Below the pieces are notes generated by a model that was given only the letters and a program-made list of their open reading frames with translations, ran no database searches and had not been told where the DNA came from. Of a stretch of 64,000 nucleotides of DNA, positions 6,893 through 60,857 are shown in pieces. The stretch comes from Octopus sinensis (taxonomy: Eukaryota), in NCBI RefSeq assembly GCF_006345805.1, contig NC_043011.1, forward strand, positions 14,582,464-14,646,463. Reading direction: 5' to 3'. Positions within the stretch are counted from its first letter, which is position 1. Each line of letters starts with the position of its first letter. Both the position numbers and the translations under genes were made by a program.

Positions 6893-8040
6893 CTAAAAGG
6901 GCATAGCTCCGTGGCAGCAATACGATAAATCGTATTTGTTGTTGATGGATACTGCATGTTGTTGGAGGGTATGCAGTTTTTCGCGGTGTCAGAGTTGGCA
7001 TTTGGGGATGCCGTGTGAATATGGTGGTGCTCTGTCGACAATAGTTCACTTGATGCTGGGTATTTCATCGCGGAGATCACAGAGTCGCCAGAGAAAACGA
7101 GACAGGGAAGTAGAGTTCTGTCTGTCCCTGGATATGAACGAGTGCATATAATGGGAGTATCTCTCCTTGAAGTCATTAGCTGTCATACCCATAGAGCGCC
7201 TAGTAATGCTATCGGATGGTGTAAGGGTGGCTCTGTATACTACGGCACATAAGAGGCAAGATCCTTCTAGAGAGCACATGGTGGGGTTTTAGAAGTTTCA
7301 GGTTGGGGTTGGGGTGGTGTGGGTGCATTTTTGTCTGTTGGTGCTTGCGAGGTTAGATGCGATGTTGTCTAAGCAGGAGTAGCTCACCTTGACATTATAT
7401 GGGTTGAAGAGTTTGTAATATTTATGGCTTGTGGAGAAGTATTTCTTAATTAGCGACAGGAAGTCCCTAGCTACGTTGGTGGAAACTTCTAGGCTGAATG
7501 GGGCGGGGTGGTTTAAACCATATAATTTTCTTTCTCCTAATCCTTTTGGAGTGAGAAGAGGGTGTTTGGGGTTGTTCACATACGTGAACTTCTCAGTAAA
7601 CCCGTTCCTAGCCAAAGCATCGTTTAGTGGGGGGGGAGGCGCCCCTGAGGTTAGATAGTCATTTCCTAATGCCTGGAACCAGGTTTTTAATTACAGGGGG
7701 GGGGGTGAGATTTTGTGGGTGTATACTGTATCCTCGTTAGACTTCCTGTACGGGTAATAAATGCCTGTACTCAGGTCTAAGGCTACGTCCAAGAAATCGA
7801 CCATAGTCAGATTGGTGGTAACCGTAATGGACAGGCCGAACTCCTTAAATATTTTTGTCAAGTCCTTTCTGAACATGTCTATGGTGTGGCCGTTCATATG
7901 GTTTGAGGTAGTCAGGTCGTCGTTCCTATAGGGGGTCGACCTATGTAGGTCGGTACGTCACTTGAGGGTATCTAAGATGTATAACACTACGAGGTCGGCG
8001 ATTTCAGCCGCGTCAAAGCTCGCTATAGAGACGTCCAACA
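6893..8040 (-). pseudogene. PLE RT/thumb/GIY-YIG ORF remnant
   Basis: LDVSIASFDAAEIADLV (~FDVTMGSxDGAE), YRNDDL (~YRDDGL), VDFLDVALDLSTGIYYPYRK, KVSYSC, (TGA)NF*NPTMCSLEGSCL, VVYRAT..SMGMT..FKERY, STSLSRFLW, KCQL(TGA); stops and frameshifts present. Confidence 0.85.
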
Positions 8041-8762: not shown

Positions 8763-10036
8763 CGAGGGGCGTTCAATAAGTAATGCCCCTGATCAACTTC
8801 CTATAGGAGTAGAGCAACGAAACTTGGCACAGTCATTAGTCTTTTTCTACATAGGAACCACCCAGAGTTACGCATTTCTCCCATCGTTTGAGGCAGCACT
8901 GGAGACCGTTTTTGTAGAAGAACCCAGCTTGGTCCTCCAACCACGACGTGACTTCAGAAATCAAGGCTGCATCATCTGGGAAACGCTTTCCTTTCAAAAA
9001 CAACTTCATGGCTGGGAAGAGGTGAAACTCAGAGGGTGCAAGGTCAGGAGGAGTTCATAGCCGCACGCCTGTGCTTCTGATCTGGCGACACGCGAGTTGT
9101 GGACCGGAGCGTTGTCCTGCAGGAGGAGGATGCCTTTGCTGATCTTGCCCCGCCTCTTGATTTTTATAGCTTCTCTTAATTTCCTCAAAAGTGAAGCATG
9201 ATAGGCTCCTGTAATTGTGGTACCCTTTGCCAGGAAATCTGTCATCACTACTCCGTCCTGGTCTCAGAAGACTGAGCATGACCTTGCCAGCGGAGGGCTG
9301 CACTCTTGCCTTCTTTGGAGGAGGTGAGTCACGGTGCTTCCACTGCATTGACTGGGCTTTGGTCTCTGAATCATAGTGATGGAGCCAGGTTTCATCCTGT
9401 GTAATCAGTCTTTTGAAAAATTTTGACTCATCTTCTTGGCACATCTCCAAATTCATCCTCGAGCACTCGACGCGTTCTTGCTTCTGGAAAGGTGTGAGCA
9501 ACCTGGAAATCCATCTGGCAGACACCTTGTTGCATATGCAAATGGTCATGAATGATAGTTTCCACAGACCCGGTACTAATCTTGACCTCATGGGCTATTT
9601 GGCGAATAGTTACGCGTCGATCTTCCAAAATGGCAGCCTCAACTTGACGGACAGATGCCTCATCAATGGCAGAAGGGGGACGACCAGATCTGGGAGCTGT
9701 TTCCACAGAGTTCCGACTATATTTGAATTCACGATGCCAGCGTTTTACAAGGTCATATGATGGGGTATCATCACCATAAGTTACTTTCATTTCATAAAAA
9801 GTCTCCCGTGGTGTGCGTCCTTTCAAATACAAAAAACCAGATCACTGCTCGACACTCAACAGGCTCCATTTCACACTTGACTCAGTTCAAACACCTGTAA
9901 ATCAGAAATCACAATTAGTTCAGAGCTGTAATTTGCCACGTAATCTATAGAGATATAAATAATTGCACATGCAAAATTTCAGCTAGATCAAACAAATGCA
10001 AGTGGGTCAGAGGCATTACTTATTGAACGCCCCTCG
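8763..10036 (-). mobile_element. Full-length mariner transposon (1274 bp), inactive
   Basis: TIR cgaggggcgttcaataagtaatgcc at both ends, TA TSD, transposase remnant inside. Confidence 0.95.
8836..9869 (-). pseudogene. Mariner (DD34D-type) transposase pseudogene
   Basis: HTH region and PRSGRP, KVSARWISRLL (WVPxxL-like), ITQDETWLHHYD, LLLQDNAPVH, partly deleted YSPDLAPSD region, ends YVEKD*; several frameshifts. Confidence 0.92.
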
Positions 10037-10497: not shown

Positions 10498-11744
10498 CTG
10501 TGTGTGTATATATATATGTATATACGCATACATGTACTCACACGTACACAAATATACACATATGTGTGTGTGTGTGTGTATACGGAGAGAGAGAGAAAAA
10601 GAGAAAGAAAGAAAGCATGGTTGTGAAAACACAAATATCCAATCCTAACTCTTTCTCTATAGTAATTTTAACAATAGTGTTAATGAACGTGGCGAGAGCT
10701 GAGTTGTCGATCAACTTCCGGTGACAACACGGTCAACTAATTTGTTACGTTCTTTGTTCAGACACAACAAAAATAAACTGCCTCTCATACACGTGAAACC
10801 TGAGGCATTACGACCTTCTGACATCGCTTCCTCTCTATCTTCTCCACCACTTCCCTCTTCCTGAAACGGCAGTTATTCATTCGTTCATATCGAGTTCACT
10901 TTGGAGCTGAGGTAGCTGGAGATTTTTTAAAAATAAATCCGCAGAGTCAGTGCTTCCATTAAGATGAACTGAACACAAATATTTCTCCGTCGAGGTCATT
11001 AACAACATTTGTATAGTTATAGCCATATGTTTAGTACACATTATTATCTCGCGAAATCAGTAAAAGAGCAATGCCATGGTCCATCCAGGACTGTTAGGAG
11101 GCAGGAAAGTATCCACAAACTGAAGACCTGGCTCGGATGCGTCCGTATAGTGGACTCAATTAGTTGAAGACATCTCAAAGCCTTGCAATTATCTTAAACT
11201 GGCAACGTATTAAGTTTACCACTCAAGTAGAACGCCACATCATTTTTGTTGAGAGTGATATGCTACTCCTTTTTCCTATTGAGGTCTTCAAGGAACATAA
11301 AAAATTTAAGGAAGCCTTTCCTCGACCTCAAGTGACTCTTAGCTGGTGTTTAGTTAAACACGAGGTAGTTTTAATCTGGAGGTATCTTTGACTGAAGAGA
11401 CACAACTAGGTCGAGACACTGTGATGTCTGAAAGTGTCATTACTTCATTGAATCGAGTGTGTGGTGAAAACACATCATCTGAAAGGAGAAAGTGTTCTTC
11501 AAGGAAGGGATACAACAGCGATTAGTATATTCATGTTAGAAGCTGTCGAAAGCATTGACAATAAATATTCACGTCTTTCTTTTAAGTCTTGCTCTTCTCC
11601 GTGCACATGACAACTTATCAGTTTTGCAGACATTATCACGCATCAGCAAATAATTTATAGAATTTCATAAACAAGAGCTGCCATTCTTCTTTAAGTTCGT
11701 TAACCCGATGGGAGCTTTGACGAAAAAGACACAATCAGGTCAAA

Positions 11745-29113: not shown

Positions 29114-30564
29114 CGATTTCTCAACGCAGTAATGGTTAAAGTAGCTTGCACTGCTGCGTAGAGTGTACATTACATTTACAGTATCCAGACTATATAGGGC
29201 AGCAGTAATTTATTACATGTATTGGGTACTCACTCTTTTATAAATGTAAATGCACACACACATACATACACACACACACACGGATGTGTGACCCAACGAG
29301 CAAGTTTAGTCCTCATAGTCGTTGCTTGAAGAGAAATCTGGTTGTACAGAGTGCGGCAAAAACAACGGCTCAGATTCAATTTTTGGCAGTGTGAAATATG
29401 GGAGTTTTTTCTGCCGTACATTGTAGTTATAAGTCTGATTCAGTTATTAGCTTTTTCATTGTGAACTGTTTTGTATATTCAAAGTGATGAGAGCCTTGAG
29501 AAATAGCATTGTTTAAGTGTTATAATGCTAATTCTAATCGGATTAAAAGATTATATGTAGTGATTATATTGATAGCTTTCTTGGGCTTTCTATCAAACAA
29601 ACATATAAAAACTGTTCTGATTCTGCTCTTTGCCCCCATTTCTGTCTCTCTCACTTTCCTTCTTTTCTCTTTATCTCTCTATCTCTATCTCTCTTAAATC
29701 CTTATATGTTCCCGAATATAACTCGTTGTTTCACAATCTCTGAGAGCCGGAATCAAAGTTGCTTTCTGCTATTTACTTTGGATAGTGTAATTCAACTGTT
29801 ATGCGGGAACTATCTTGCTGTTAACTTCCTTTCTACTACACAACACATGATCTCTATTGATTCTAATATTGTCTTCCTACCGGAAAATGTAGTTCTCTGA
29901 ACTTATCCTAATATACATTAATAGCAGCACATATGACTCTTCAATATTTCTCAGTCTTAGGGTGGCGAGCTCGCAGAATCGTTAGCACACCAGGCAAAAT
30001 GTAGCATTTTGTCCGTCTTTATGTTCTGAGTTCAAATTCCACCGAGGTCTATTTTGCCTTTCATCTTTTCGGGGTCGATTAAATAAATACCCGTTGAGCA
30101 CTGGGTTCGATGTAATCAACTTACCCCTTCCCCAGAACTTGCTGGCCTTGCCTTGTTCCCGCATTTGAAACCAATGTTTCTCAATTTTTGATTTTATAAA
30201 ACGGTTGAAATATTTAAGCACTGAACTAAATGCTTTACAGTATTTATATTTTCTGCTGGCTGTGCTTTTGTCTCTAGCGTCTTCCAGGGTCGACTTTGTA
30301 TTTTTTCGTGCCACCTCCGGCTTCATAAATTAGTAAATAAGTAGTAGACACATACTGGAGTCGATTCAGACATTTCTCATTACAACTATCTGAGTTTTTG
30401 CTCATGTAAGAAATCCAAGTAAATCGTACCACTACTGTATAAATCTTTCTGAGATATTTAGAAATGTATTATTTCTATTTCTGTAATCAGTGAATGTATT
30501 TCATTAGAATTCTTATATGTTTGCAAGGGCTAGATGGCCATCTCCAAGTAGCAGGCTATGCTAC

Positions 30565-30607
30565 TCCAGACTGATGACGAGCAAAGACTCAGAAACTAGT
30601 CTCTGGA
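30565..30607 (+). ncRNA. Minimal type I hammerhead ribozyme
   Basis: tccaga-CTGATGA-c-gag(caaaga)ctc-a-GAAA-ctag-TC-tctgga; perfect 6-bp stem I, palindromic stem III, GUC site at 30599-30601. Confidence 0.88.
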
Positions 30608-31344
30608 TGCAGGCTTAGCTGGGTGGAAGTGCTTATCTCCCCCTTGCAAGCATAAGGACACAGGAAATGTGTCAAGGCCGACAGGAAGCGTTGCTGCTTC
30701 CTAGGGTTAAAAAGCAGTAGTATTATTCCCTTCATGGGACTGTCACATTAAGTTGACAATACACAATTACTTTAAGATTTTCAATTTAATATTTTGAGAA
30801 AATTTAAGGTGATAAGCTGGCAGAATTGCTAGTATGCCGGGAAAAAAGCTTCGTGGTATTTTGTCCGTCTTTACGTACTGTGTTGAAATTCTGTCGGGGT
30901 CGACTTCCCTAATTTCGGGGTCGATAAAATAAGCACCGGCTGAGCACTAGGATCGATGTAATCTACCTGCCTCCTCCGCCGAAATTTCTGGCCTTGTACC
31001 AAAATTTGAAACCAATATTTTGAGAAAATTTATCTCAAATCAATTAAATGGCAATCAATTATATTGAATTGTTCAGAGAGCTGACTTAACGGATATATCC
31101 ATGCATTATCTCAAACCTTTAAGACTAATTTTCAAATTTTAAAAGGACTGCGAAAACATTTGCTTATTATTTTGAAATATTTGATAAAATGTAAATATGA
31201 AATATGTTATAGAATAAGCCATAAGCATAAATGCTACATTTAATATTTATAGCAAACAAAACTTGAATGTTTTTCAATGAGTAGTACTAAATGTTATTGG
31301 CTGTACTGGGATATATTTAAAAGAGGATTCGCAGAAAAATATTG

Positions 31345-32476: not shown

Positions 32477-33445
32477 TGTTTCTTTACTACCCACAAGGGG
32501 CTAAACATAGAGGGGACAAACAAAGACAGACGAACGGATTAAGTCGATTACATCGACCCCAGTGCGTAACTGGTACTTAATTTATCGACCCCGAAAGGAG
32601 GAAAGGCAAAGTCGACCTCGGCTGAATTTGAACTCAGAACGTAGCTGCAGACAAAATACCTATTTCTTTACTACCCACAAGGGGTCAAACACATAGAGGA
32701 CAAACAAGGATAGACAAACGGATTAAGTCGATTACATCGACCCCAGTGCGTAACTGGTACTTATTTAATCGACCCCGAAAGGATGAAAGGCAAAGTCGAC
32801 CTCGGCTGAATTTGAACTCAGAACGTAGCGGCAGACAAAATACCTATTTCTTTACTACCCACAAGGGGTCAAACACATAGAGGACAAACAAGGATAGACA
32901 AACGGATTAAGTCGATTACATCGACCCCAGTGCGTAACTGGTACTTATTTAATCGACCCCGAAAGGATGAAACGCAAAGTCGACCTCGGCTGAATTTGAA
33001 CTCAGAACGTAGCGGCAGACAAAATACCTATTTCTTTATTACCCACAAGGGGTCAAACATAGAGGGGACAAACAAGGACACACAAACGGATTAAGTCGAA
33101 TACATCGACCCCAGTGCGTAACTGGTACTTAATGTATCGACCCCGAAAGGATGAAAGGCAAAGTCGACCTCGGCGGAATTTAAACTCAGAACGTAACGGC
33201 AGACAAAATACCTATTTCTTTATTACCCACAAGGAGCTAAACATATAGGAGACAAACAAGGACAGACATAGGTATTAAGTCGAATACATCGACCCCAGTG
33301 CGTAACTGGTACTTAATTTATCGACCCCGAAAGGATGAAAAGCAAAGTCGACCTCAGCAGAATTTGAACTCAGAACGTAACGGCAGACAAAATACCGCTA
33401 AGTATTTCGTCCGGCGTGCTAACGTTTCTGCCAGCTCGCCGCCTT
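32477..33445 (-). mobile_element. SINE family A pentamer (one head, five 184-bp bodies)
   Basis: Units start at 32477, 32661, 32845, 33029 and 33213; 15-bp TSD taaactggtagtatc at 32462-32476 and 33447-33461. Confidence 0.92.
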
Positions 33446-41222: not shown

Positions 41223-41462
41223 TAAGCAATAAAGGGTTTAGCAACGAATTGCCTTACCACATACCGAATTTAGAAATAGCAGTCAAAGAGTTATAGCTAT
41301 TTCTTCTACTAAAAAGGGAGATCTCAGTAAAAACAGCAATTGGAATTGCTGTTTTTACTGAGATCTCCCTTTTTAGTAGAAGAAATAGCTATAACTCTTT
41401 GACTGCTATTTCTAAATTCGGTATGTGGTAAGGCAATTCGTTGCTAAACCCTTTATTGCTTA
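41223..41462. repeat. Fold-back palindrome (119-bp arms, GG loop at 41342-41343) of PLE pseudo-LTR sequence
   Basis: Arms read as exact reverse complements; homologous to 42250-42302. Confidence 0.95.
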
Positions 41463-51551: not shown

Positions 51552-54500
51552 TGATAATGCATTGAATGTTCATTAAATGAACAGTGGTAATGCATTGAAT
51601 GTTCATTAAATGAACAGTGGTAATGCATTGAATGTTCATTAAATGAACAGTGGTAATGCATTAAATGTTCATTAAATGAACAGTGGTAATGCATTGAATG
51701 TTCATTAAATGAACAGTGGTAATGCATTGAATGTTCATTAAATGAACGGTGGTAATGCATTGAATGTTCATTAAATGAACGGTGGTAATGCATTGAATGT
51801 TCATTAAATGAACGGTGGTAATGCATTGAATATTCATTAAATGAACGGTGGTAATGCATTGAATGTTCATTAAATGAACGGTGGTAATGCATTGAATGTT
51901 CATTAAATGAACGGTGGTAATGCATTGATTGTTCATTAAATGAACGGTGGTAATGCATTGATTGTTCATTAAATGAACAGTGGTAATGCATTGAATGTTC
52001 ATTAAATGAACGGTGGTAATGCATTGAATGTTCATTAAATGAACGGTGGTAATGCATTGAATGTTCATTAAATGAACGGTGGTAATGCATTGAATGTTCA
52101 TTAAATGAACGGTGGTAATGCATTGAATGTTCATTAAATGAACGGTGGTAATGCATTGAATGTTCATTAAATGAACGGTGGTAATGCATTGATTGTTCAT
52201 TAAATGAACGGTGGTAATGCATTGAATGTTCATTAAATGAACGGTGGTAATGCATTGAATGTTCATTAAATGAACAGTGGTAATGCATTGAATGTTCATT
52301 AAATGAACAGTGGTAATGCATTGAATGTTCATTAAATGAACAGTGGTAATGCATTGAATGTTCATTAAATAAACAGTGGTAATGCATTGAATGTTCATTA
52401 AATGAACAGTGGTAACGCATTGAATGTTCATTAAATGAACAGTGGTAACGCATTGAATGTTCATTAAATGAACAGTGGTAACGCATTGAATGTTCATTAA
52501 ATGAACAGTGGTAACGCATTGAATGTTCATTAAATGAACAGTGGTAACGCATTGAATGATCATTAAATGAACAGTGGTAACGCATTGAATGTTCATTAAA
52601 TGAACAGTGGTAACGCATTAGATGTTCATTAAATGAACAGTGGTAACGCATTGAATGTTCATAAATGAACAGTCGTAACGCATTGAATGTTCATTAAATG
52701 AACAGTGGTAATGCATTGAATGTTCATTAAATGAACAGTGGTAATGCATTAAATGTTCATTAAATGAACAGTGGTAATGCATTGAATGTTCATTAAATGA
52801 ACAGTGGTAATGCATTGAATGTTCATTAAATGAACAGTCGTAACGCATTGAATGTTCATTAAATGAACAGTGGTAATGCATTGAATGTTCATTAAATGAA
52901 CAGTGGTAATGCATTAAATGTTCATTAAATGAACAGTGGTAATGCATTGAATGTTCATTAAATGAACAGTGGTAATGCATTGAATGTTCATTAAATGAAC
53001 AGTGGTAATGCATTGAATGTTCATTAAATGAACAGTGGTAATGCATTGAATGTTCATTAAATGAACAGTGGTAATGCATTAAATGTTCATTAAATGAACA
53101 GTGGTAATGCATTGAATGTTCATTAAATGAACAGTGGTAATGCATTGAATGTTCATTAAATGAACAGTGGTAATGCATTGAATGTTCATTAAATGAACAG
53201 TGGTAATGCATTGAATGTTCATTAAATGAACAGTGGTAATGCATTGAATGTTCATTAAATGAACAGTGGTAATGCATTGAATGTTCATTAAATGAACAGT
53301 GGTAACGCATTGAATGTTCATTAAATGAACAGTGGTAACGCATTGAATGTTCATTAAATGAACAGTGGTAACGCATTGAATGTTCATTAAATGAACAGTG
53401 GTAACGCATTGAATGTTCATTAAATGATCAGTGGTAACGCATTGAATGTTCATTAAATGAACAGTGGTAACGCATTAAATGTTCATTAAATGAACAGTGG
53501 TAACGCATTAAATGTTCATTAAATGAAAAGTGGTAACGCATTGAATGTTCATTAAATGAACAGTGGTAACGCATTGAACGTTCATTAAATGAACAGTGGT
53601 AACGCATTGAACGTTCATTAAATGAACAGTGGTAATGCATTGAATGTTCATTAAATGAACAGTGGTAACGCATTGAATGTTCATAAATGAACAGTGGTAA
53701 CGCATTGAATGTTCATTAAATGAACAGTGGTAATGCATTGAATGTTCATTAAATGAACAGTGGTAATGCATTGAATGTTCATTAAATGAACAGTGGTAAT
53801 GCATTAAATGTTCATTAAATGAACAGTGGTAATGCATTAAATGTTCATTAAATGAACAGTGGTAATGCATTAATGTTCATTAAATGAACAGTGGTAATCC
53901 ATTGAATGTTCATTAAATGAACAGTGGTAATGCATTAAATGTTCATTAAATGAACAGTGGTAATGCATTGAATGTTCATTAAATGAACAGTGGTAACGCA
54001 TTGAATGTTCATTAAATGAACAGTGGTAACGCATTGAATGTTCATAAATGAACAGTGGTAATGCATTGAATGTTCATTAAATGAACAGTGGTAATGCATT
54101 AAATGTTCATTAAATGAACAGTGGTAATGCATTGAATGTTCATTAAATGAACAGTGGTAATGCATTAATGTTCATTAAATGACAGTGGTAATGCATTAAA
54201 TGTTCATTAAATGAACAGTGGTAATGCATTAAATGTTCATTAAATGAACAGTGGTAATCCATTGAATGTTCATTAAATGAACAGTGGTAATGCATTAAAT
54301 GTTCATTAAATGATCAGTGGTAACGCATTGAATGTTCATTAAATGAACAGTGGTAACGCATTGAATGTTCATTAAATGAACAGTGGTAATGCATTAAATG
54401 TTCATTAAATGATCAGTGGTAACGCATTGAATGTTCATTAAATGAACAGTGGTAACGCATTAAATGTTCATTAAATGAACAGTGGTAACGCATTAAATGT

Positions 54501-56119
54501 TCATTAAATGAACAGTGGTAACGCATTGAATGTTCATTAAATGAACAGTGGTAACGCATTGAACGTTCATTAAATGAACAGTGGTAACGCATTGAACGTT
54601 CATTAAATGAACAGTGGTAATGCATTGAATGTTCATTAAATGAACAGTGGTAACGCATTGAATGTTCATTAAATGAACAGTGGTAACGCATTGAATGTTC
54701 ATAAATGAACAGTGGTAATGCATTGAATGTTCATTAAATGAACAGTGGTAATGCATTAAATGTTCATTAAATGAACAGTGGTAATGCATTGAATGTTTAT
54801 TAAATGAACAGTGGTAATGCATTAAATGTTCATTAAATGAACAGTGGTAATGCATTAAATGTTCATTAAATGAACAGTGGTAATGCATTAAATGTTCATT
54901 AAATGAACAGTGGTAATCCATTGAATGTTCATTAAATGAACAGTGGTAATGCATTAAATGTTCATTAAATGAACAGTGGTAATGCATTGAATGTTCATTA
55001 AATGAACAGTGGTAACGCATTGAATGTTCATTAAATGAACAGTGGTAACGCATTGAATGTTCATAAATGAACAGTGGTAATGCATTGAATGTTCATTAAA
55101 TGAACAGTGGTAATGCATTAAATGTTCATTAAATGAACAGTGGTAATGCATTGAATGTTCATTAAATGAACAGTGGTAATGCATTAAATGTTCATTAAAT
55201 GAACAGTGGTAATGCATTAATGTTCATTAAATGAACAGTGGTAATGCATTAAATGTTCATTAAATGAACAGTGGTAATCCATTGAATGTTCATTAAATGA
55301 ACAGTGGTAATGCATTAAATGTTCATTAAATGAACAGTGGTAATGCATTGAATGTTCATTAAATGAACAGTGGTAACGCATTGAATGTTCATTAAATGAA
55401 CAGTGGTAACGCATTGAATGTTCATAAATGAACAGTGGTAATGCATTGAATGTTCATTAAATGAACAGTGGTAATGCATTAAATGTTCATTAAATGAACA
55501 GTGGTAATGCATTGAATGTTCATTAAATGAACAGTGGTAATGCATTAAATGTTCATTAAATGAACAGTGGTAATGCATTAAATGTTCATTAAATGAACAG
55601 TGGTAACGCATTGAATGTTCATTAAATGAACAGTGGTAATGCATTGAATGTTCATTAAATGAACAGTGGTAATGCATTAAATGTTCATTAAATGAACAGT
55701 GGTAATGCATTGAATGTTCATTAAATGAACAGTGGTAATGCATTGAATGTTCATTAAATGAACAGTGGTAATGCATTGAATGTTCATTAATTGAACAGTG
55801 GTAATGCATTGAATGTTCATTAAATGAACAGTGGTAATGCATTGAATGTTCATTAAATGAACAGTGGTAATGCATTGAATGTTCATTAAATGAACAGTGG
55901 TAATGCATTAAATGTTCATTAAATGAACAGTGGTAATGCATTGAATGTTCATTAAATGAACAGTGGTAATGCATTGAATGTTCATTAAATGAACAGTGGT
56001 AATGCATTGAATGTTCATTAAATGAACAGTGGTAATGCATTAAATGTTCATTAAATGAACAGTGGTAATGCATTGAATGTTCATTAAATGAACAGTGGTA
56101 ATGCATTAAATGTTCATTA
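51552..56119. repeat. 33-bp minisatellite, ~138 units (aatgcattgaatgttcattaaatgaacagtggt)
   Basis: Homogeneous tandem array with clustered point variants and occasional 32-bp units. Confidence 0.98.
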
Positions 56120-59826: not shown

Positions 59827-60774
59827 TAACTATCTATCACACATGTAGATGTAAATATCTATTGATATATTTTCATACATACTCGTTGCATGGTCTGTCG
59901 TTAAAATGGTAATTTAATTCTCCACAAGAAACTACCCCTATTTTCCGTTCATGAATCAAAGGCATGTTTTTTCTATATTCAATAATTAGTGTAGATCATT
60001 AAGTTAGTTCATTAATGTTTGGAGTGACCGAACGTAGCAACTTTGAAGTATAATCAAATTTTTTGTGTAATATAACTGGTTGAACTATTTAGAAAATATC
60101 GAGGAGCATGACAAAGAGACTTCAAGTATATATATAAAAAAAAGAAGGTTTGCCGAGTTTAAAAAGAAATATCAAATAGTCGATTTGTATAGAGGGAAAA
60201 TTACTTTTTCTCATCTCCAATAAATTGGTTTTGAATATCAAGACTTGTTCAAAGTTGATTGCAAGTGACGAACATAGCTCTACGACTCCCTTCTTCACAT
60301 CGTCTCTCAAAGATAAATTAACTGATGAAGACCAAGGTTTCCAAGTAACAGTCGTTGAAAATGTAGAATTCAGACCTGCTAGTTAACCAACATGTCAACA
60401 ATATTTGTTTCAGTGTATCAGGCAGCGTAGAGATTTATTGTAACCTTGGCTATTTGAGAATTAAGTGTATTAGCCATGGACTTAGCATAGCGCAAATAAC
60501 TGAAAATATACTACAAAGAATTCGTAACTGACCGCCATTCTATCGATTTTACAGATGAAGAGTTTTAAATCTCAAATATATACATATATCTACAATAATA
60601 AATTTCTGGACGAGGTATATTTGCCATCTCAATATGGCTAACCACTAAGGGTGGATGTTACTATAACTTGTAGCCCCAGGAGAACATCTTCTCCCGCTGG
60701 CTATTGACACACTTTCTGTGCCCTATCGGTATTTGCAAAGGGAACTCATCCTTCCCTCGTCAACCCAAGTGATA

Positions 60775-60817
60775 CGCACGGACTGTAGTATCTGGGTATT
60801 GACCCGTCATCAGCGCA

Positions 60818-60819
<2 letters not shown>
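60775..60819 (-). ncRNA. Type I hammerhead with one core substitution (GAAA to GATA)
   Basis: gtgcg-CTGATGA-c-ggg(tcaata)ccc-a-GATA-ctacag-TC-cgtgc; downstream sequence is homologous to that of the 30565 ribozyme. Confidence 0.7.

Positions 60820-60857
<38 letters not shown>

Follow-up and report, generated by a model that had tools for sequence, protein, structure and literature searches.

The described systems closest to the element analysed here, a short, ribozyme-bearing, non-coding repeat of which two copies (A and B) lie in a 64,000-nucleotide (nt) stretch of the Octopus sinensis genome (the window; NCBI RefSeq assembly GCF_006345805.1, contig NC_043011.1, positions 14,582,464 to 14,646,463), are the animal retrozymes without long terminal repeats (LTRs) and the Penelope-like elements (PLEs). 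The retrozyme class is already known, and its origin from PLEs has already been proposed. According to excerpts of PMC7229834 and bioRxiv 10.64898/2026.07.22.740005, animal non-LTR retrozymes share with the octopus units a non-coding sequence of 150-400 nt, a GC content below 45%, one type I hammerhead per unit and an arrangement as monomers to short arrays; dependence on PLEs has been proposed for them, and the mussel units, at 350-390 bp, are near in size to those found here. The excerpts of these papers offer single-sequence folds or phylogeny, whereas the octopus units have a domain supported by covariation; they describe no two-site tail, inversions or target signature for retrozymes, all marks which the present units show, and no cephalopod.

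PLE pseudo-LTRs with a tail, as in PAc Poseidon (PMC11167929; PMC8557442), have in common with the octopus units a hammerhead followed by a stretch of RNA and two internal start sites for reverse transcriptase (RT), the latter inferred here, as well as AT-rich or (TA)n targets and inverted, 5'-truncated partners. With the PAc PLE in vitro, the tail is set by a pair of neighbouring AC-rich sites inside the RNA at which RT begins; the stretch immediately following the hammerhead is needed, AT-rich DNA is cut and ribozyme cleavage is dispensable (PMC11167929). The stretch required in PAc is, however, the start of an open reading frame (ORF), with a tail of 30-40 nt, whereas here its place is taken by ~170 nt of non-coding hairpins that covary; the tail measures about 45-50 nt, and neither an ORF nor a partner is attached. 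The minimal, dimeric PLE hammerheads (PMC4209133) have the same CUGANGA core and very short palindromic stem III, but the octopus ribozymes differ from them in an extra nucleotide before GAAA, a U3-A8 pair in several subfamilies and a stem I that is extended to a long rod.

By the sequence-level definition of the class, both window loci are copies of a non-LTR retrozyme, given one type I hammerhead per unit, a size within 150-400 nt, a GC content below 45%, tandem arrangement and the lack of coding capacity. Behind the hammerhead lie four hairpins (a-d), which likely form a binding scaffold positioning a borrowed Penelope-like (probably Neptune-type) RT for an internal start in the RNA. The original prediction for this DNA regarded these hairpins as a possibly undescribed domain. 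Neither locus matches Rfam at E<=1, and the literature searched, a scope outside which Repbase and Dfam lie, holds no description of a covariation-supported domain behind retrozyme or PLE hammerheads, of a tail signature for retrozymes, or of a Tx1 element targeting them. A word search of a 2026 octopus repeat annotation (PMC13282606) found no mention of ribozymes.

RNA fold and covariation of the unit

Copy A (30423..30773, + strand) is a single 351-nt unit of clade A, circularly permuted in that it starts with the tail of the previous unit and ends at a site referred to as 3' end site 1. In the predicted monomer fold, the 3' strand of a long-range helix, P5 (30431..30438, from the preceding unit's tail), pairs with its 5' strand (30714..30721), so enclosing hairpins c and d and end site 1. 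Two small tail hairpins, f and g (30443..30477), hold 3' end site 2 of many copies, which in the numbering of the previous unit lies at about +250 to +260, and are followed by hairpin e in the spacer (30488..30507) and by the rod, i.e. the extended stem I with the hammerhead at its tip (30515..30654). Then come hairpin a (30657..30673), hairpin b (30676..30708), which comprises two helices with an internal loop, the P5 5' strand, hairpin c (30727..30739), the weakest helix, hairpin d (30741..30758) and an AC-rich stretch that runs up to end site 1 at +203 (30759..30773) and which, by analogy with PMC11167929, may be the first start of reverse transcription. Copy B (60593..60820, - strand; clade B) is 5'-truncated, lies behind a (TA)n run and ends at site 2; a 30-nt deletion between two TATACCTC repeats in its tail has removed the P5 3' strand. 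It retains, on the - strand, hairpins a (60722-60706), b (60703-60671), c (60654-60642) and d (60638-60623), and the P5 5' strand (60664-60657). The hammerhead-plus-module pattern fits only these two copies within the window.

Hairpins a-d are all recovered by RNAfold in both copies, the modules having z about -2.9. The whole of copy A folds with z -5.4 (0/100 shuffles as stable) and copy B with z -2.3 (2/200 shuffles). The two modules are 60% identical (z 7.2; 0/2000 dinucleotide shuffles) and are hence homologous rather than convergent. A covariance model built from 52 family-B copies alone, with the structure supplied by hand, detects copy A with a score of 46.9 bits (E 1.2e-8), the next chance match being at 14 bits; a sequence-only profile gives copy A 25.1 bits, though the two kinds of score are roughly comparable at best. 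The same B-only model surfaced clade C (360 nt, members 95-98% alike), which is younger and scores 45.6 bits, vs 23.0 with the sequence profile.

For analysis of pair changes, 270 anchored candidates were reduced to 181 distinct full-module copies, 88 without a full module and 1 identical copy being set aside, and these form 27 clusters, of which 15 have two or more copies. Across the latter 15 subfamilies (the 12 single-copy clusters were omitted from the pair-by-subfamily table), 9 of the 27 pairs in hairpins a-d swap compensatorily, and 370 of 403 cells are paired. The compensatory pairs number 0/6 in a, 5/12 in b, 2/4 in c and 2/5 in d, and are also found outside the module, in the rod (8 of its outer 13 pairs), stem I (6/6), hairpin e (3/7) and P5 (6/8). 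In six disjoint contrasts between subfamilies, 14 of 15 changed a-d pairs are still paired, 9 of them because both partners changed (expected under the null 0.50 and 2.4; P 2e-4, the lowest value that 5,000 permutations allow), vs 46 of 131 for changes private to single copies; contrasting the window's own two subfamilies, 7 of 9 changed pairs are kept. An alignment of 69 distinct copies to the model is 92.4% paired (0/500 shuffles), with slid controls at 32-49%. The combined pattern of changes indicates that the fold is a real, selected structure; the copies themselves decay neutrally after insertion. Hairpin a, without compensatory change, is conserved in sequence only, and this conservation suggests a specific contact.

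These results sharpen the original prediction, made from the letters of the window, of four hairpins that covary between a hammerhead locus and a diverged second copy 30 kb away. All of the strings quoted in it are present where it placed them, including the rod arms at 30521/30641, and its proposal that a short retroelement of retrozyme type, non-coding and equipped with a ribozyme, contains a cis-RNA structure under selection is borne out by significant covariation across many copies. The order of the hairpins is indeed kept, but at 60% identity the likeness is partly plain descent; covariation holds for b, c and d and not for a. The pairing quoted for hairpin c of copy B (ccac/gtgg) was slipped, the register homologous to copy A being accc/gggt, which is imperfect in this B subfamily. 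The hairpins are present but are part of a whole-unit fold with the rod, P5 closing c and d, and further hairpins, rather than four separate elements. The extent proposed for the element was likewise too short, copy A covering 30423-30773 and copy B 60820 to about 60593.

Two further structural candidates were rejected. A tRNA-like cloverleaf in the P5 domain was seen by eye in clade B only and is unsupported in A and C; as for an octamer or small nuclear RNA (snRNA)-type promoter within the rod, the letters resembling an octamer are variable, whereas their pairing is kept.

The 3' ends of copies and a probable Penelope-like mobilisation

Counted from C3 of the hammerhead core, the 3' ends of 114 copies found by pattern fall at +190-215 in 58 cases and at +240-275 in 40, with 3 between, 11 earlier and 2 later. 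The same two-site pattern is present in all three clades, and 28 copies found by the hammerhead alone end at the same two sites. The ends thus defined lie about 170 and 220 nt beyond the hammerhead cut site, not at it, and module a-d sits at a fixed distance directly 5' of the inferred RT starts, at about +204 and +250 from the ribozyme core. The original prediction, while recognising a retrozyme-type cis-RNA, overlooked this coincidence between the end of the module and the 3' end sites of the copies, from which its function may be guessed.

The 20 nt behind the ends are 82% A/T, with (TA)n in 100 of 182 cases, and units end without poly(A). An inverted piece lies upstream at 69 of 179 loci and at 28 of 85 in another set; in 15 of 57 non-inverted copies the two flanks have at least 8 non-simple bases in common (mean of the controls 3.9, maximum 10), and some copies have target duplications of 9-17 nt. 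Copies cross the cut site and often exceed one unit (1-2.3-mers, longer arrays), and 5' truncations are seen; the template was therefore uncut or re-ligated. Partial tandems, an inverted, 5'-truncated partner, a tail and microsatellite targets are Penelope-like marks (excerpts of PMC8557442). Because the two end sites, the AT-rich or (TA)n targets and the inverted, truncated partners match such marks, the element is very probably a retrozyme mobilised by a PLE. That hairpins a-d provide the scaffold for its RT is made likely by their location directly 5' of the inferred RT starts, and by their holding the position of the RNA required behind the hammerhead in PAc.

A mechanism may be proposed in which a tandem or read-through transcript would fold into the rod, hairpins a and b, and a P5-closed domain comprising c, d and the tail. 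The protein of an autonomous PLE would bind this domain in trans and nick AT-rich DNA, and either site 1 or site 2, at about +204 and +250 respectively, would serve as the start of cDNA synthesis. The cDNA would extend back through the module, across an uncut or re-ligated hammerhead and often beyond one unit, a step displayed by the copies themselves, its products being the 1-2.3-mers, longer arrays, 5' truncations, inverted partners and occasional 9-17-nt target duplications described above. The hammerhead, predicted to be active only as a dimer via its palindromic stem III, would cut multimers to monomers, which may circularise; cutting would not be needed for insertion, and selection on the fold would act at every transposition.

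Among sequencing runs recorded as RNA, none holding the unit was found. Contigs from four presumed-RNA runs, from four organisms, cover the unit and join 30773 to 30423, a join that tandem DNA gives equally. Depth relative to a neighbouring common repeat is lower in the presumed-RNA runs than in two large ones of unspecified type, and contigs cannot reveal ends, strand or level; none of these observations speaks for or against expression.

The genome holds intact PLEs, of 781 and 775 amino acids, with RVT_1 and GIY-YIG domains. The main family, which on the basis of its domain features we take to be Neptune-like (L167-L170; G000:C1, C3, C6, C19), is young and has an intact 781-residue RT-GIY-YIG frame, an overlapping upstream frame (479 residues in L167 and L170), and a U3-A8/ACAUGU hammerhead like that of clade C. 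Its 3' region contains CCAAT-rich repeats, and its ends lie on (TA)n at two sites, about +103 and +135. Beyond the 3' end of one such element, a hammerhead-like motif with a long stem II lies in another dispersed repeat (L167:6519-6790). A 3' end common to the retrozyme and an autonomous PLE was not found in the small sample of PLE loci, and tblastn with 7 PLE pieces found no sense PLE frame upstream in 201 anchored copies (112 with at least 1.4 kb) or in another 20 loci of 8.5 kb each. Downstream of two copies there are PLE fragments, which are interpreted as separate insertions; copies near PLEs (L113/L175, L123/L174, L172, L173) were considered as a link to a partner and rejected, being separate insertions also. 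No autonomous PLE carrying the module has thus been found, and this is the main gap.

The family, its hammerhead and the inserted LINEs

First-look candidates number 2,740 for family A and 3,484 for family B. A pattern for hairpins a and b has at least 4,644 exact matches, vs 0 for the reversed control pattern, and one for hammerhead plus hairpin a has 1,644, vs 1 in the control, inverted and tandem pieces each being counted separately; copies were gathered from the octopus genome itself by pattern or anchor, such that more distant families may be missed, and duplicates (L027, L053, L061, L071, L221) were removed before counting. Unit lengths from tandem copies are 351 nt (A), 352-354 nt (B), about 356 nt, and 360 nt (C), with a GC content of 0.405-0.439 and 47-54% identity between the three clades. 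Most copies span 0.6-1.7 units, the head-to-tail tandems including a 2.3-mer (L014), two dimers (L136 and L158) and one four-site array. In agreement with the original prediction of no adjacent ORF, there is no protein-coding frame, the longest from Met in natural dimers being 24-48 residues. Subfamily E, with 218 target-site matches including the four-site array, retains a, b, d and P5 (68-81 bits with model R2, full-length copies), hairpin c being degenerate. Five multi-unit loci gave only microsatellite-driven hits in Rfam. Derivation from a tRNA, as in many short interspersed elements, was rejected, a scan of 9 loci having found 0 tRNAs and there being no curated Rfam match.

The type I hammerhead of copy A (30565..30607, + strand) has its CTGATGA core at 30571 (C3), a stem I formed by 30565-30570/30602-30607, a C.A mismatch closing stem II and a palindromic stem III, ACUAGU, with a predicted cut after 30601. 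That of copy B (60775..60818, - strand; core at 60813) has GAUA in place of GAAA and a non-palindromic stem III insert. Of 171 parsed copies, 141 have a palindromic stem III, among which six palindromes are represented, a short palindromic stem III being the dimer-dependent form (excerpts of PMC4209133 and PMC6765202). The C3-G8 pair becomes U3-A8 in clade C; U3-A8 cores also occur in B-like subfamilies (L347, L354, L345). According to subfamily, stem II is closed by C.A, U.U, A-U or G-C. In the window's subfamilies, which have the C.A closure, an extra nucleotide stands before GAAA, and the G10.1-C11.1 pair directly before GAAA in the minimal PLE consensus (CUGANGAH G..C GAAA) is absent; one other subfamily has the G-C closure. 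The 6/6 compensatory pairs of stem I, the C3-G8/U3-A8 swap and the varied palindromes indicate that the hammerhead is under selection. Whether it is active is uncertain, in view of the C.A closure of stem II and the damaged core of copy B; among dimers of Xenopus retrozymes, 8 of 9 did not cleave in vitro (excerpts of bioRxiv 10.64898/2026.07.22.740005). Elsewhere in the window, 11386-11434 (+ strand) gives a weak Rfam Hammerhead_1 match (25.6 bits, under the gathering threshold of 34), where the module model has no match.

Several families of long interspersed nuclear elements (LINEs) have their insertion site 4-26 nt ahead of the hammerhead core, where they lie in sense and are flanked by target duplications of 11-18 nt, and the LINE 3' end abuts the unit at 40 exact junctions (control 0). 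They comprise full 5.5-kb elements, with ORF1 and a second frame with APE, RT and zinc-finger (zf) regions, and ORF1-only derivatives (e.g. L093:3540-9538, G000:C11:55.34 Mb; further loci L271-L290, L321-L340). Domains PF03372, PF00078 and PF13966 are over the cut-off and the zinc knuckle PF00098 is just below it; from this domain order, we take these LINEs to be Tx1-like. They share with target-specific Tx1 LINEs (Tx1L, Keno, Tx1-Mar; excerpts of PMC4494074) an ORF1 zinc knuckle, an APE-RT-zf ORF2, a fixed site in another repeat and a target duplication. Tx1 elements that target other repeats are known from the same excerpts, but a hammerhead element is not among the targets given there; the present LINEs, Tx1-like by domain order, differ in that their target is a hammerhead retroelement.

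Of 25 junction loci, 2 without a junction match were left out, and 11 of the other 23 retain the unit's upstream half together with a duplicated target. With the 3' end of one LINE family as query, the unit follows in 22 of 30 copies (21 of 29 without the query itself), above the 20% by which a target-specific Tx1 LINE is defined; in a further 6 of the 30 the start of the target is followed by other or LINE sequence, 3 of these being confirmed as the 5' end of the same LINE, and in 1 of the 30 U2 snRNA follows. At L307:1818-2011 (G000:C3:19.73 Mb) the LINE lies at position 1 of a full U2 snRNA (Rfam 183.6 bits), the first bases of which resemble the retrozyme target. A link of the inserted LINE to the U2-targeting Keno elements is thus possible. 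In subfamily E, a 14-nt target flanks a full 5.5-kb LINE on both sides in all 11 loci fetched (11/11), and one clade A unit (L134) has the same junction. Of the first 100 E target sites listed, 78 are empty (counted by eye), and the LINEs diverge by 0.4% compared with 3.3% for their host units; the LINEs are therefore later insertions, and composites of LINE and subfamily E unit moving as one are rejected. In an inverted pair (L267/L268, 98.8% over 674 nt), about 450 nt of LINE 3' end are fused to the unit, with ends at sites 2 and 1, a hint that hammerhead, module and tail are enough to carry a passenger; no further junction-spanning inversion was within reach in 50 junction loci.

Other features of the window include a frame at 7298-7690 (- strand) resembling the linker of a PLE, without a Pfam match, which we presume to be of Naiad type; a broken mariner-type transposase at 9055-9841 (- strand; PF01359 and PF17906 below cut-off); a 33-bp minisatellite at 51555-56119 (138.6 copies, 97% matches); and a near-perfect long inverted repeat at 41282-41403. 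The surroundings of copy A (32479-33396; 29960-30180; 30810-31020) hold a 184-bp unit in five repeats, together with scattered copies of a short repeat that is very common. A dispersed repeat that includes short (CCCTAA)n runs is found at 344-858, 16029, 35402, 48355 and 49946, in one instance in the form of a 271-bp dimer.

Competing explanations and wider meaning

The whole unit, and not a-d alone, covaries and folds compactly, as might be expected if the module served persistence of the RNA, e.g. as a stable circular RNA, in binding a host protein or ligase or in hammerhead folding, with the RT recognising the tail only. The transposition of the autonomous Neptune-like family without such a module, and the abundance of highly self-paired retrozyme circular RNAs in mussel, coral and axolotl (excerpts of PMC7229834), are consistent with this proposal. 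It is nonetheless considered rather unlikely, since the module adjoins end site 1 at a fixed distance in all clades, hairpin a keeps its sequence across clades that are otherwise so diverged, as fits a specific protein contact, and subfamily E keeps a, b, d and P5 despite its deviating ribozyme core, although each of these observations would fit a host protein too. Much less probable is that the unit is the pseudo-LTR of an unsampled autonomous PLE family, the window copies being solo or truncated pseudo-LTRs, the former having been entertained in the original prediction. All of the insertion signatures are PLE-like, the PLE loci examined are a small share, and Xenopus retrozymes are homologous to PLE pseudo-LTRs (excerpts of bioRxiv 10.64898/2026.07.22.740005); however, copies extending upstream enter the previous unit, joined head to tail, through the spacer, and a sense PLE ORF lies directly upstream in 0/201 anchored copies and 0/20 of the wider loci, such that the solo pseudo-LTR is unsupported.

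Neutral descent from a structured ancestor, with the pairing itself unselected, could account for the identity of the A and B modules, for the lack of compensatory change in hairpin a and for the weak consensus folding within family B, but is very improbable, given that over all helices 41 of 47 between-subfamily changes keep pairing, 32 by double change (null mean 5.9), vs 95 of 283 private changes. Mobilisation of the copies by the adjacent Tx1-like LINE is hardly credible; the exact junctions and the filled loci, which resemble a repeat-ORFs-repeat arrangement, favour it, but the LINEs lie inside pre-existing copies with target duplications, are much younger than their hosts and are missing from most listed target sites, and the units end without poly(A) and on (TA)n.

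Several observations weigh against the preferred reading, that of an RT-binding scaffold in a retrozyme mobilised by a PLE. In the Neptune-like family the module is absent and the distance from the hammerhead to the ends is only about 100-135 nt, and the likeness of its tail to that of the retrozyme is not significant (z -1.4 to 2.3). Applied to the 3' regions of 30 GIY-YIG loci and to 10 wider PLE loci, models R1/R2 detected independent insertions only, with 150 of 5,029 GIY-YIG candidates scored. The survey of 3' ends excludes short copies by construction. Cleavage may be weak, in that stem II is closed by a mismatch, C.A or U.U, in most subfamilies, and subfamily E combines U3.G8 with a GUU site. 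Regarding the fold, P5 taken alone is not significant (P 0.11), and RNAalifold on family B alone gives another consensus fold, with a weak covariation term (-0.52). The cross-clade registers in the pair-by-subfamily table and in the contrasts were chosen manually and with knowledge of the structure, the 69-copy alignment was fitted to the model, and the covariation consists of tip-to-tip contrasts that are only partly corrected for relatedness.

The findings address two open questions, i.e. how animal retrozymes are copied and which RNA is recognised by a PLE RT. The link of retrozymes to PLEs has so far consisted of co-occurrence and pseudo-LTR homology, and in the sole in vitro work the required RNA was delimited only by truncations, within an ORF (PMC11167929). 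The non-coding family described here shows the PLE tail signature directly, and its structure, which covariation supports and of which natural compensatory variants exist, opens the recognition step to experiment. LINEs that home to a site before a hammerhead constitute a target class absent from the literature searched.

PLE RTs are the sister group of telomerase, and a structured RNA partner of such an RT thus bears on the origin of telomerase RNA. It may tentatively be suggested that a-d and P5 serve specifically as an RNA scaffold for a PLE RT, an enzyme related to telomerase, and so are a counterpart of the protein-binding/template-boundary domain of telomerase RNA. They would then constitute a portable cis module of ~260 nt that fixes two RT starts independently of cleavage, is able to carry upstream passengers and is itself targeted by several LINE families, so forming a chain from PLE to retrozyme to Tx1.

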